From: Actinomycetes bacterium
Lineage (GTDB): Bacteria; Actinomycetota; Thermoleophilia; BMS3ABIN01
Direction: 5' to 3'
Assembly (NCBI GenBank): GCA_021790115.1
Contig: JAJYIM010000005.1
Coordinates: 1 to 60,216 of the forward strand
DNA length: 60,216 bases
How positions within the stretch are numbered: position 1 is the stretch's first letter; the number at the start of each line of letters is the position of its first letter. A model generated the notes under the pieces. It searched no databases. It saw only the letters and a program-made list of their open reading frames with translations, and was not told the DNA's origin. Below are positions 4 through 13,108 of the stretch, in pieces. Made by a program: the position numbers and the translations under genes.

Positions 4-651
4 TCAGCCTCGTCGGTCCCCCCCCGTCTCCAGGTTAAGACGGATAAGATCAAAAATCTGGTAAAGGTCGTGCGGATACAAATCTATATGCCGATTCAGA
101 AGGTTGATATTACGTGCTCTTTTTTTATCAATGTCTTGCTTGCACCAAGGTTTGTGAATAATCGTTATCTCAGAGGGAACATATGCGCATAAATCTCGGT
201 TGGGAACTGTCAGCTTCTCATGAAAAATTCCTTCATACCTAACCTCTGGAGATCTCTTAAAAAGGCGCAGGCTTCTCATTGCTGTCCATTTGGGAGATAA
301 CTGTATGAGAACTTCGTACCCCCGGATCTCATCCCGCTGAACCGCCGCTTTTATTTGGTTTTTACTTTGCGGGGCAAGAACTTCATCGGCATCAAGAACA
401 AGAATCCAGTCCCCGCTAGCATGGTCAAGAGAAATATTGCGCGGAATTGAGAAGCTGTCATTCCATTGATGAAAGAAAATCAGAGCTCCAAACGATTCGG
501 CAATCGCGGCCGACTTATCACGTGACCCCGTATCAACCACAATTATTTCGTCTGCTACATCTTTGACACTATTGAGGCATTTTGCCAGATGCTCCTCCTC
601 GTCTCTGACGATCATGCAAAGGCTGATTGACGTAACGTCCATAATCTTCAC
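4..651 (-). CDS. GT2 glycosyltransferase (SunS-like / GT2-TPR type), probably truncated by a frameshift in a G8 tract near its 3' end
   Basis: SISLCMIVRDEE...IIVVDTGSRD, WILVLDADE (DxD), RLFK...YEGIFHE motifs; last gene of the minus-strand operon at the window edge. Confidence 0.85.
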   Translation of the reverse strand: MKIMDVTSISLCMIVRDEEEHLAKCLNSVKDVADEIIVVDTGSRDKSAAIAESFGALIFFHQWNDSFSIPRNISLDHASGDWILVLDADEVLAPQSKNQIKAAVQRDEIRGYEVLIQLSPKWTAMRSLRLFKRSPEVRYEGIFHEKLTVPNRDLCAYVPSEITIIHKPWCKQDIDKKRARNINLLNRHIDLYPHDLYQIFDLIRLNLETGGDRRG

Positions 652-9907: not shown

Positions 9908-10262
9908 CTTTGGTAGCTCAGCTTGTTTTGCAGCCTCTCTGCCCAGCTTAACCGCCCTGCCTGATGCTTGATATGATAATTAGGCCTTCCGAAACTGCTG
10001 CCGGAATAATACTTTAGAATCTACCCTGCCGGCGCCACCGTCTAACCCCCGCTTGCCGGTATCATGTTGCCACTTGCCTTTTTGACAACAAGCCTGCCGG
10101 CGGCTGTGCCCCAAATTAAAAAAGTATAACAATTGCAGCAGTTTGTTTCCAGATAATTTATAATTACTGCAAACATTTTACGAGTTCCTGCTTATTTTTT
10201 TACAATTTGCTTTCGGGGGGCTGCCATGATTGCCGCCCAGGCAGAATCTGGCGCAAATTATG

Positions 10263-10724
10263 ATGGAATTGAAGCGGGAAAAAATTTTGGTTAGCGGCTG
10301 CCTCGCCGGGCTCCCCTGCAGTCATGACGGCCAGGGGCGCCTCAACAAAACGGTCAGGCGCCTGGTTGATGATGGCGCCGCAGTGCCCGTCTGCCCCGAG
10401 CAATTGGCGGGCCTGCCTTCGCCGCGTGAAATGGCCGAGATTGATGGCGGTGACGGAACCGGCGTCCTGGACGGAAAAGCCCGCGTCCGCTCGCGCCCGG
10501 GAAAGGATCTGTCGGCCGCTTTCACCAAAGGCGCGCAGGAAACGCTTAAGCTTGCCCGCCGCCACAGCTGCCGCATGGCGGTGCTTAAAGCCAGAAGCCC
10601 CTCCTGCGGCCGGGGACAGATTTACAACGGCAGTTTCCGTGGCCGGCTGAAGTCCGGCAGCGGCGTCACGGCGGCTCTGCTCATGCGCGCCGGCATTGAG
10701 GTTGCCACTGATGAAGAAATATAA
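10263..10724 (+). CDS. DUF523 family protein (TudS-like thiouracil desulfidase)
   Basis: ILVSGCLAG, VCPE, LKARSPSCG, GVTAALL motifs. Confidence 0.88.
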   Translation: MELKREKILVSGCLAGLPCSHDGQGRLNKTVRRLVDDGAAVPVCPEQLAGLPSPREMAEIDGGDGTGVLDGKARVRSRPGKDLSAAFTKGAQETLKLARRHSCRMAVLKARSPSCGRGQIYNGSFRGRLKSGSGVTAALLMRAGIEVATDEEI

Positions 10725-11733
10725 AGCAATCGCGCTGCTCTCCGGCGGCCTGGACAGCCGCCTGGCCGTCAAGATGATGCTCGATCAGGGCATTGAGCTG
10801 GAAGCGGTCAATTTCGTCACCGCTTTTTGCACCTGCACCGCCAAGAGCAGTTGCAAATCCGAAGCCAGCAAGGCGGCGGCGGAATTTGGCATCCCGCTGA
10901 AAGTTCTCAACGCCACGGACGAGATCCTGACAGCGGTGAGGGAGCCCCGGCATGGTTTTGGCCGCGGCCTCAACCCGTGCCTGGACTGCCGCATCAGCAT
11001 GTTTCGCCGGGCCGGGCGGCGCATGCGCGAAACTGGCGCCGGCTTTATCGTCACGGGCGAGGTCTGGGGAGAGCGCCCGATGTCGCAGCGCCCGGATGCG
11101 ATGCGCATCATTGAGCGGGAGTCCGGCCTGGAAGGGCTGATCGTGCGGCCGCTCTGTGCCCATCTGTTCGAACCCAGCCTGCCGGAGCGCGAGGGCTGGG
11201 TCGACCGCGGGCGGATGATGGCAATTGCCGGGCGTTCGCGCAAGCCGCAGATGCAGCTGGCGGCGGAGCTGGGGGTTTATGACTATCCCTGCCCGGCGGG
11301 TGGCTGCCTGCTTTGCGACCGCAACTTCTCTGCCCGCCTGCGGATGCTGCTGGCGGAAAACCCGGAGCCCGGGATTGCCGAGATCCAGGCGCTCAAGCTG
11401 GGGCGGCTATTTATCTCCTCCAGCGGCAGCAGGATCATCATTCCGCGCAACGAGGAAGAAACCAGCCGGCTTGAGGCTCTGGCCCGCCCCGGCGACATCA
11501 TCATGAGCGCCGATGGTTTCGCGGGCCCGACGACGCTGATAAAGGGAGCCGGCGACGGTGATGGCAGCATCGAGGAGGCGGCGGCGCTGACGGCGCGCTA
11601 CGGCCGGGCAAGGGAAGAGGAAACAGTATCAATAAGCTGGCGCCTCGCCGGCGCGGCAGAGAAAACGGCAGAATCATTGCAGGCCTTGCCGGCAACGGGC
11701 CGGCGGCTGGCCGGCACGCTGGAGCGCCTCTGA
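10711..11733 (+). CDS. ThiI/MnmA-like PP-loop tRNA sulfurtransferase family protein
   Basis: LLSGGLDS PP-loop, NPCLDC, GERPMSQ, YPCPAGGCLL; overlaps DUF523 gene by 14 bp. Confidence 0.8.
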   Translation: MKKYKAIALLSGGLDSRLAVKMMLDQGIELEAVNFVTAFCTCTAKSSCKSEASKAAAEFGIPLKVLNATDEILTAVREPRHGFGRGLNPCLDCRISMFRRAGRRMRETGAGFIVTGEVWGERPMSQRPDAMRIIERESGLEGLIVRPLCAHLFEPSLPEREGWVDRGRMMAIAGRSRKPQMQLAAELGVYDYPCPAGGCLLCDRNFSARLRMLLAENPEPGIAEIQALKLGRLFISSSGSRIIIPRNEEETSRLEALARPGDIIMSADGFAGPTTLIKGAGDGDGSIEEAAALTARYGRAREEETVSISWRLAGAAEKTAESLQALPATGRRLAGTLERL

Positions 11734-11762
11734 CAAAGCGGTTTCAGATACAATGAATCCTT

Positions 11763-11777
11763 TAATAATCATTAAAA
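11763..11777. promoter_or_regulatory. Possible Fur/PerR-family 7-1-7 operator
   Basis: TAATAAT-C-ATTAAAA upstream of the putative selenoprotein. Confidence 0.3.
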
Positions 11778-11843
11778 TCTAAGTTATTGATGATTGCGCT
11801 CCGAAACAATAAACATAACCAAGAGAAGCGAGGGGGAGAATAA

Positions 11844-12164
11844 GTGCAATCCATAATTCCTGTTTTTGGCTCACGTTATCTTGATTCCTGCTCCGGCGGT
11901 TGAGGGCCAAGCTGGTCTCTGGAAGAGGTCACCGAAACTATTAACAGGCAACTGGCCCACGATTTTGACGGCGGCGCCAGGTTGCGTTATGTCGATTTTG
12001 ATTCCCATGATCTTGCCGAATACCCTGATGTGCGCCAAAAAGTTAAGCAAGGCTCCATCGAGCCCGGCGCCATTATGATTGAAGGCAAGCTCGTTAACAT
12101 CTGGGAAATCTCTTACACCAGGCTGCTCGCCGAGTTTGAGCGGCTGGGGGCAAAAAAACAGTAA
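11844..12164 (+). CDS. Probable selenoprotein, YuzD/DUF1462-like thioredoxin fold (106 aa, CSGGU motif)
   Basis: RBS AGGGGGAG + GTG 11844; frame open except TGA 11901-11903; continues into ORF 11982..12164; hairpin GGTCTC-TGGAA-GAGGTC at 11914-11930. Confidence 0.8.
11914..11930 (+). promoter_or_regulatory. Candidate bacterial SECIS element
   Basis: Stem-loop whose G-containing loop starts 16 nt after the UGA. Confidence 0.6.
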
Positions 12165-12256
12165 GATTCCGCCTCAAGGGAATGTCCCGTTCCGACCGGC
12201 TGTCAAAGTATTTTGGCTTTGCCTCGCAGCGGATTGCCTTTTGAGACAAAATCCAG

Positions 12257-13108
12257 TTACTTGATCCGCTTTAGCAGCACCGGCACTTCTGTTTGCCTCA
12301 GGATCCCCTTTACCGTTGCCGCCCGTTCGCCTGCCATCTGCCCGCGCCAGATGAGAGCTATCATGTCCTCGTGTTGCTCGCGCGCAAAGGCAAGAGTCTC
12401 GGCAACGGTGCCTCCCGTCCGGTAGACGAGACGGATGTTTGCTTCGGGTTGCCGGGCCGCGAAGCGGCGCATGAACTCATCGGCCCATCCTGACCAGTCG
12501 TAATGAGGCCGGTCAAGATATCTGGGGCCGGTGAATGCACCTGCTTCGACGGGCTGCCTGGCGCTGACGGCAACATGAAGCACGTCAATATCCGCTCCCA
12601 TCATCTGCGCCAGGCTAAAGACCTGGTCCACCTCGCTTGCCGTCACCGGCGAGCCGTCATGAGGAATCAGCATCCGGCCCGGCTGCCAGTCGCGGTCGGG
12701 TGTGCCCTGCCTGAGCGGGCGCACCACCATCACCGGGATATCGCATTGCTGAATCACGTTCATGGTGACGCTGCCGGCAACGAGCCCGGCATCGTGCGTT
12801 CTGCCATGGCTAGACATGACAATCATGCTGGCGTCGAGGCTGGTGCCCAGCTCCAGAATGGCATTGACGATTTGACCGGTAGGTTGATGAAAAATGATTT
12901 TTTTGGTGTTGACCTGGCCCAGATTGAGCAGCCGCAGCAGCTGTTCTTCCGGCTGCGGCTCCTTGCCAACGTAAACAACGTGCAATGACGCCTCCAGCAG
13001 CCGCGCCACGGCCTCGGCGGCGCCGAAGGCCCGGGCGGCTGTGCGTGAGCCGTCCAGAGGAATGATGATCGCGCGCTGGTAATTACCATTGTCAGGATGA
13101 TTTATCAA
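12257..13108 (-). CDS. Universal stress protein (tandem Usp domains)
   Basis: IIIPLDGS, IVMSSHGR...GSVT, LIPHDGS; TTG start after GGAGG, overlapping GH65 end. Confidence 0.85.
   Translation of the reverse strand: MINHPDNGNYQRAIIIPLDGSRTAARAFGAAEAVARLLEASLHVVYVGKEPQPEEQLLRLLNLGQVNTKKIIFHQPTGQIVNAILELGTSLDASMIVMSSHGRTHDAGLVAGSVTMNVIQQCDIPVMVVRPLRQGTPDRDWQPGRMLIPHDGSPVTASEVDQVFSLAQMMGADIDVLHVAVSARQPVEAGAFTGPRYLDRPHYDWSGWADEFMRRFAARQPEANIRLVYRTGGTVAETLAFAREQHEDMIALIWRGQMAGERAATVKGILRQTEVPVLLKRIK

Follow-up and report, generated by a model that had tools for sequence, protein, structure and literature searches.

An in-frame TGA in an actinobacterial gene for a thioredoxin-fold relative of DUF1462: a probable selenoprotein with a C-x3-U motif

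Does an in-frame TGA at the twentieth codon of a small actinobacterial gene end translation, or is it read as selenocysteine (Sec)? The question arises on contig JAJYIM010000005.1 of an Actinomycetes bacterium (assembly GCA_021790115.1; Thermoleophilia, BMS3ABIN01), positions 1 to 60,216 of which, the whole stretch of DNA analysed, are called the window here. A forward-strand reading frame that opens with GTG at 11844 and closes with TAA at 12162–12164 contains a single in-frame TGA as codon 20 and, with TGA translated as U, reads VQSIIPVFGSRYLDSCSGG[U]GPSWSLEEV...GAKKQ. The program-made list of open reading frames (ORFs) holds just the C-terminal 60 aa (11982–12164), and a protein database entry (P0003) is the same 60-aa fragment. 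A sequence-only reading of this DNA had described a ribosome-binding site and GTG followed by an in-frame TGA, an ORF track catching only the last 60 residues, and a gene that standard pipelines miss, and in all three respects the layout is as it said. The start is conserved as well: in all relatives examined (20–21 sequences of the window's taxonomic family) the start codon lies 7–13 codons 5′ of an FGSR(Y) motif, and nearly all of them carry a GGAGG-like stretch just before it. We conclude that this is very probably a genuine selenoprotein gene. The fuller statement, that an intact selenoprotein gene encodes a thioredoxin-fold relative of the DUF1462/ArsD branch in which Sec20 may have a redox or relay role, is held with good, slightly lower confidence.

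The gene was sought by six-frame search in 61 related genomes and was found in 26 of them, from 12 genera, with exactly one in-frame TGA in 26 of 26. Matches came from 20 of 23 genomes in f1, the family to which the window belongs, and from 5 of 7 in a sister family (f5); seven further families in the same search gave no match. Across 21 f1 sequences the surroundings of the TGA read FGSR(Y/W)LDSC-x-(G/S)-G-U-GP(S/T)WSLEE, conserved on each side of U, the form in the window being FGSRYLDSC-SGG-U-GPSWSLEE; the five f5 genes have GS(R/H)..D..x-R-x-GG-U-(G/A/R)P.LSLEE. A profile of the f1 proteins (A1), run against 401 Actinomycetota genomes, matched in 10, all with the TGA, including a third family, f60, that reads C-FSGG-U-GPSW. 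The broader profile A3 gave 34 matches in 24 of these genomes, with one TGA in 22 matches, none in 11 and a TAA in one; the position of the TGA was inspected in 14 of the 22. Homologues that keep the TGA between conserved flanks had been named beforehand as a check on the proposal, and all 26 matches among the related genomes are of this kind.

Either side of the TGA, conserved residues are encoded by varying synonymous codons, with major-codon shares of 0.30–0.81; before the TGA these include G9, S10, R11, D14 and C16, and after it G21, P22, T30, R35 and others. Both sides are thus under protein-level selection in one frame, which rules out a pseudogene or a pair of unrelated ORFs.

Bacterial selenocysteine insertion sequence (SECIS) elements are stem-loops shortly 3′ of the UGA with a G in the apical loop, and the window has such a hairpin. 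Its stem pairs 11913–11920 with 11924–11931 and starts at the 10th nt after the UGA (9 nt between), with the loop 17 nt after the UGA (16 nt with the closing U:A pair unpaired); a stem-loop 10 nt downstream with a G-containing loop at 16 nt had been read from the sequence, and these distances agree. Among 26 distinct f1 and f5 sequences, standard pairs occupy 208 of 208 pair cells, against 38–63% in a control with the 3′ partner slid. The outer two pairs change in a compensatory manner (UA to CG; GC to UA or UG), one further pair varies on one side, and RNAalifold independently predicts the same helix. Within f1 the stem is nearly invariant: codons 23 and 25–28 use one codon in 20–21 of 21 sequences and codon 29 does so in 18 of 19, whereas the major-codon share stays at or below 0.81 for the other 35 conserved degenerate codons. 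These frozen stem codons look like an RNA constraint on top of the coding constraint. Relative to the U of the UGA the loop is at +20..22, exactly where the selD hairpin of the same genome has its GUC triloop, and adjoining the position of the loop GGUCU (+21..25) in the hairpin of an FdhA-like gene. In two more distant subfamilies, f60 and f33, the stem sequences differ but a GGC- or GGA-loop hairpin is still present, and in f60 the innermost pair is C:G. A promoter and terminator scan of 11650–12350 found none.

The genome, a 1.81 Mb assembly that is 97.6% complete, carries the machinery for Sec insertion. It encodes a tRNA-Sec with anticodon TCA (69.9 bits), the only UCA-anticodon tRNA detected, together with selA (591 bits) and selB (349 bits) side by side on contig C60 and selD (367 bits; G000:C30:32412-33341, −). 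The search for selA, selB, selC and selD that had been proposed for this locus therefore returned all four, each over its curated cut-off. Two other selenoprotein genes of the organism have an in-frame TGA of their own: selD itself reads ...HGAGUACK..., and the FdhA-like gene (G000:C56:10696-11445, −) reads ...CARTUHAP... with Sec. TGA is also an ordinary stop in this organism, as the gene upstream of the selenoprotein gene terminates in TGA at 11731–11733 and TGA ends 12 of the 31 long stop-to-stop frames of the window.

A separate observation concerns the tRNA complement. The only tRNA-Cys(GCA) among the 40 tRNAs reported by ARAGORN is a 97-nt species with a long variable arm (G000:C40:21745-21841, −; equivalent to L002:1497-1593), to which the tRNA-Sec model of Rfam gives 51.3 bits, over the 47-bit gathering score. 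CysRS was found in the genome, and a search for SepRS gave nothing over the cut-off there. We take this tRNA-Cys to resemble the tRNA-Sec-like or ‘allo’ tRNAs of other authors.

At the Sec column, Cys predominates among the database homologues. P0002, 59% identical to the window protein, reads CSGGCG; Cys stands at this column in 8 of the 10 database proteins in alignment A3 and also in the structure 1xg8. An earlier caveat, that Trp, Arg or Gly at this position would point to a simple nonsense mutation, is answered by these Cys forms and is not entirely disposed of, since three homologues have Trp. A profile search of 1.84 billion representative proteins gave 40 matches, of which 16 are proteins of 43–90 aa whose first residues fall at profile columns 26–74, past the Sec column; P0004 alone of these was inspected individually. 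Their distribution has the pattern of gene calls restarted after the TGA. A metagenome scan with an alignment of the Trp forms returned two loci, both of unrelated proteins sharing only a short GGWGPRW motif, and these were rejected.

An AlphaFold2 model computed on a 21-sequence alignment has a mean predicted local distance difference test (pLDDT) score of 86.5 and a predicted template modelling score of 0.77, and its order of elements, beta-alpha-beta-alpha-beta-beta-alpha, is that of the thioredoxin fold, with strand 1 at residues 3–9 and helix 1 at residues 26–41. In a Foldseek search of the PDB, which gave no match at E ≤ 0.001, the top template modelling (TM) score was 0.60 for 1xg8 (probability 0.99) and all rows were thioredoxin-fold proteins. 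With an exhaustive aligner (VIA) 1xg8 is again the top match (Z 7.3, 96 aligned residues), and the ArsD structures 3kgk (Z 6.0) and 3ktb (Z 5.8) are among the others. 1xg8 is the DUF1462 structure (PMC3091736). Generic thioredoxins lie within about 1 Z unit of 1xg8, so the fold alone cannot settle the subfamily, which is settled by sequence evidence.

That evidence comes from profiles. A sequence search of the PDB with the single protein gave a chance-level match only; profile A3 reaches 1xg8 by sequence at E 3.5e-10, and in that alignment the U20 column falls on the second Cys of its C-A-S-C. Comparison of A1 with A3 by hhalign gives 99.7% probability (E 5e-26), which confirms homology and is not an independent discovery, A3 having been assembled from the matches of the A1 search. 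Three of 20 full-length matches from the representative-protein search exceed the Pfam cut-off for DUF1462 (P0026, P0038 and P0041, all Cys forms) and 13 more match below it, with ArsD and Thioredoxin_3 as weaker alternatives; ArsD scores among the relatives reach 24.7 bits, against a cut-off of 27. The f60 Sec forms L066–L069 score 25.0–34.9 bits on PF07315, whose cut-off is 25, whereas the window protein, L029, L039 and L040 have no PF07315 match at E ≤ 1, and NCBIfam gave no match for three other Sec subfamilies. By these alignments the protein is a divergent DUF1462 relative with C-x3-U in place of CxxC, and not a member by the Pfam threshold. The proposed YuzD/DUF1462-like fold accordingly stands as regards the top-ranked structure and the profile link and fails as regards a PF07315 match for the window protein itself; the accompanying claim, that the UGA lies where YuzD has the second Cys of its CxxC with three intervening residues here, agrees with the alignment to 1xg8.

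Set beside known families, the window protein shares most with DUF1462 (PF07315; Bacillus subtilis YuzD, Staphylococcus aureus SA0798): a length of about 100–110 aa, the thioredoxin fold and a reactive motif in the strand 1–helix 1 loop. It differs in having Sec for Cys and the spacing C-S-G-G-U rather than CxxC, and in origin, the named members YuzD and SA0798 being from Firmicutes and the window protein from a Thermoleophilia-type actinomycete; a literature search found no functional study of YuzD. With ArsD (PF06953; 3kgk, 3ktb) it has in common a small thioredoxin fold and reactive residues in a flexible loop before helix 1. ArsD uses three Cys, whereas the window protein offers two candidate ligands, Cys16 and Sec20, lacks an ArsD Pfam match and has no ars context. 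From classical thioredoxin (PF00085) it differs in that there is no Pfam match and the motif lies 5–6 residues ahead of the modelled helix 1, unlike the WCGPC-type CxxC at the helix N-terminus. The catalogued selenoproteins Trx (UxxC), Grx (UxxC) and Sec.1/Sec.2 are likewise small thioredoxin-fold proteins with Sec in a redox motif, Cys homologues and a SECIS hairpin 3′ of the UGA; here the motif is C-x3-U-G-P, and none of their Pfam or NCBIfam models match.

Table 1. Features of the selenoprotein locus and its 5′ neighbours (window coordinates)
Feature	Position	Strand	Basis
Shine-Dalgarno-like GAGGGGGAG	11830-11838	+	5 nt ahead of the GTG start; sequence reading
Probable selenoprotein coding sequence, 106 aa + TAA	11844-12164	+	Translation with TGA=U, orthologues, AlphaFold2 model
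Cys16 codon TGC, likely partner of Sec20 in the C-x3-U motif	11889-11891	+	Invariant in 21 aligned sequences
In-frame TGA, probably read as Sec (U20)	11901-11903	+	Conserved; coding on both flanks; alignment to 1xg8 CxxC
SECIS-like hairpin UGGUCUCU-GGA-AGAGGUCA	11913-11931	+	8 pairs, GGA loop 11921-11923; comparative pairing
ThiI-like PP-loop ATPase, 345 aa, C-terminal NFACT-R_2 RNA-binding domain; stop TGA	10696-11733	+	Pfam ThiI, tRNA_Me_trans, NFACT-R_2
DUF523 / 2-thiouracil desulfurase (TudS-type)	10230-10724	+	PF04463, 137.8 bits; context only

The neighbour most consistently associated with the gene in f1 is that for a ThiI-like PP-loop ATPase (Table 1), whose NCBIfam ThiI and MnmA matches are weak. 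In 20 of 21 f1 loci, which span 8 genera, it is immediately 5′ and co-oriented; in the exception (L025) the locus stops at a contig edge and a ThiI-like gene stands at the start of another contig of the same genome. Across 23 f1 genomes the two genes are present or missing together, which adds little because they are adjacent. A DUF523 gene precedes the pair in the window's genus and at one other locus (5 of 21 loci within the fetched flanks), and a Usp gene is also among the window's neighbours. The window's DUF523 gene is a Cys form, carrying ...SPSCG...; in a Desulfosarcina, DUF523 is described as a family of selenoproteins bearing SxSUG (2025 study, PMC12013277; PMC13188914).

Other subfamilies have other neighbours. 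The gene order in f5 is trxA, selenoprotein gene, FmdB-like zinc-ribbon gene at 5 of 5 loci. In f60 (L066–L069, equivalent to L072–L075) a 4Fe-4S ferredoxin-like ORF was seen by eye just upstream; f33 (L079–L084, L087, L090), with the motif SC-G(F/S)G-U-GS, adjoins a DUF1015 gene; and the f39 and f74 genes sit between genes for ArsA and an Acr3-type transporter.

Two side observations belong with these loci. The FmdB-family gene, with a CxxC...CxxC pattern, overlaps or abuts the selenoprotein stop at all five f5 loci (L054:1804-2013 and the equivalents in L055–L058); all are Cys forms, and Table 1 of PMC13188914 lists FmdB-family selenoproteins (UxxU) from some organisms. Loci L076 (about 1534–1842, +) and L077, in genomes G120 and G367, hold a Sec-containing DUF1462/ArsD-like gene reading ...GAGGUGPVCEPADCGP..., with ArsA ATPase genes on one side and that for an Acr3-type transporter (SBF family) on the other, which is the place of ArsD in ars operons. 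A strong hairpin (−20 kcal/mol) follows the UGA, and the Sec stands, by eye, some 10 residues upstream of the column usual for the family. The product is possibly a selenocysteine ArsD-type arsenic chaperone.

How might the window gene be expressed, and what might its product do? Translation would start at the GTG (11844), the hairpin (11913–11931) would recruit SelB with Sec-tRNA(UCA) at the UGA (11901–11903), Sec would be inserted as residue 20, and translation would continue to the TAA (12164). Sec20 would then be the reactive centre, in the flexible loop that joins strand 1 to helix 1, with Cys16 four residues upstream. It could alternate between the selenol and a Cys16–Sec20 selenenylsulfide, or form a mixed Se–S bond with a partner, and be re-reduced by thioredoxin. 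The protein might serve the adjacent, presumably co-transcribed ThiI-like PP-loop RNA sulfurtransferase as a reductant or as a sulfur (chalcogen) relay. Se incorporation, the redox cycle and the partner are inferred from fold, motif and gene order, and the role beside ThiI in particular is tentative. A generic thioredoxin-coupled redox role has similar odds, and an ArsD-like chaperone is somewhat less likely.

Several observations weigh against this account, some against Sec insertion and others against the function proposed. The related genomes are kin, so that their counts are not independent. The window's hairpin is weak when taken alone (−4.7 kcal/mol) because it contains two G-U pairs; a 66-nt stretch of the region folds no better than its shuffled versions (z = 0.63); and an Rfam scan of 11700–12300 found no SECIS family, with one chance-level snoRNA match. 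The support for the hairpin comes from comparison among relatives, not from thermodynamics. Three full-length homologues (P0007, P0012 and P0029) have Trp at the Sec column (GGWGP); these may come from a gene caller that translated TGA under a TGA=Trp table, or be genuine TGG. With Cys in place of Sec, the window protein matches no Pfam or NCBIfam family at E ≤ 1. The only poorly defined part of the structural model is the loop at residues 17–21 (pLDDT < 50), which puts the Cys16–Sec20 geometry outside the model's reach. Two of the five f5 members, L057 and L058, lack a Cys at the Cys16 position, so a Cys–Sec selenenylsulfide cannot be the universal mechanism. As for the partner, the ThiI link is confined to f1, the other subfamilies adjoining ferredoxin, ArsA/Acr3 or DUF1015 genes; within f5 the ThiI-like gene is unlinked in genomes G032 and G052 and was not found at E ≤ 1e-20 in G037, G047 and G057.

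Two alternatives deny that Sec is inserted at all. Were the TGA a true stop, the locus would be a pseudogene, or would encode a short upstream peptide and, further downstream, a second protein, for instance the 60-aa ORF; in favour of this, gene callers pick up nothing but C-terminal fragments. We consider this extremely improbable, given a TGA retained in every match of 12 genera and, beyond them, in other families of Actinomycetota, residues conserved on either side in one frame while their codons vary synonymously, and a fold that needs strand 1 and helix 1, both absent from the 60-aa product. The fragment calls themselves start at many scattered profile columns (26 to 74), so that no internal start is conserved. 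Decoding of the UGA as Trp, Cys or another residue is hardly more credible. It would account for the Trp forms P0007, P0012 and P0029, and could draw on a sole tRNA-Cys that is an unusual species scoring on the tRNA-Sec model; yet that tRNA has the anticodon GCA, not UCA, the only UCA tRNA found is tRNA-Sec, the genome has a full selA/selB/selD set, the hairpin spacing equals that of selD, TGA is a normal stop in neighbouring genes, and the Trp forms may themselves be TGA read under a TGA=Trp code by the gene caller.

Insertion of Sec being by far the most probable decoding, two further alternatives keep the selenoprotein and change its task. It could be a general thioredoxin-dependent redox protein, reductase- or peroxidase-like, with the ThiI-like neighbour a coincidence within one lineage, for which the thioredoxin fold, a trxA gene immediately 5′ at 5 of 5 f5 loci and the lack of linkage to the ThiI-like gene outside f1 all speak. 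An adjacency kept in 20 of 21 loci and 8 genera nevertheless outlasts the usual chance gene order, and the motif lies away from the helix N-terminus, unlike that of classical thioredoxins and glutaredoxins; we regard this reading as possible without favouring it. Less likely is an ArsD-like soft-metal or metalloid chaperone, in which Cys16 and Sec20, in the flexible loop, would be the ligands for As(III), Sb(III), Hg or the like, to be passed on to a pump or enzyme without redox cycling. The ArsD structures among the matches (3kgk and 3ktb), the weak ArsD Pfam scores of several relatives (up to 24.7 bits), the placement of the Sec subfamily L076/L077 between ArsA and Acr3-type transporter genes, and a motif placed, as in ArsD, in the loop that leads into helix 1 and not at the N-terminus of the helix, fit such a function. 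Against them stand two candidate ligands where ArsD has three Cys, the lack of flanking ars genes around the window gene and its relatives, a Sec at another position, about 10 residues upstream, in L076/L077, and the missing ArsD match of the window protein. A wider proposal, which we think doubtful, is that the window gene represents one branch of a sizeable uncatalogued group of Sec-containing DUF1462/ArsD-like proteins in small-genome, probably anaerobic Actinomycetota, with Sec taken into the flexible loop to serve different partners: as a selenium-based reductant or sulfur relay for the RNA-thiolating ThiI-like enzyme here, in a thioredoxin-coupled protein in f5 and in an ArsD-type arsenic chaperone encoded between ArsA and Acr3 in others.

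The family seems to have escaped previous catalogues. A 2026 review lists 119 families and subfamilies of prokaryotic selenoproteins, together with motifs and Pfam or NCBIfam identifiers (PMC13188914); its Table 1 has no entry with PF07315, PF06953, or a CxxxU or GGUGP motif, and the family could stand under another label in the supplementary tables. The nearest entries in Table 1 are the thioredoxin-like selenoproteins Sec.1 and Sec.2 (PF13192; CxU, UxC), and of the Pfam and NCBIfam models that the table lists none matches the window protein. The passages on new families in the deep-Sep study do not include this one (PMC12013277), and BSepDB is described as built from previously reported families (PMC13326102). 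A full-text literature search, with supplementary tables outside its scope, found no paper linking DUF1462 or ArsD with a selenoprotein, and for DUF1462 alone it returned a 2010 fold classification (PMC3091736).

On this evidence the family is new but its kind is familiar, that of selenoproteins with the thioredoxin fold and Cys homologues. Less usual are the spacing of the motif, its location in a loop and a partner Cys that is not universal. New thioredoxin-fold selenoprotein families are found regularly, and the result is solid but incremental unless the partner hypothesis is true. In that case this would be a selenoprotein acting directly in RNA thiolation, for which we know of no precedent. 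The gene is systematically mis-annotated, with databases holding only C-terminal fragments. If confirmed, the family would extend the use of Sec in Thermoleophilia-type Actinomycetota and, because Sec usually marks a catalytic residue, would give a reactive-site assignment to DUF1462/YuzD, a fold family without known function, along with candidate partners in a ThiI-like sulfurtransferase, thioredoxin and ArsA/Acr3.

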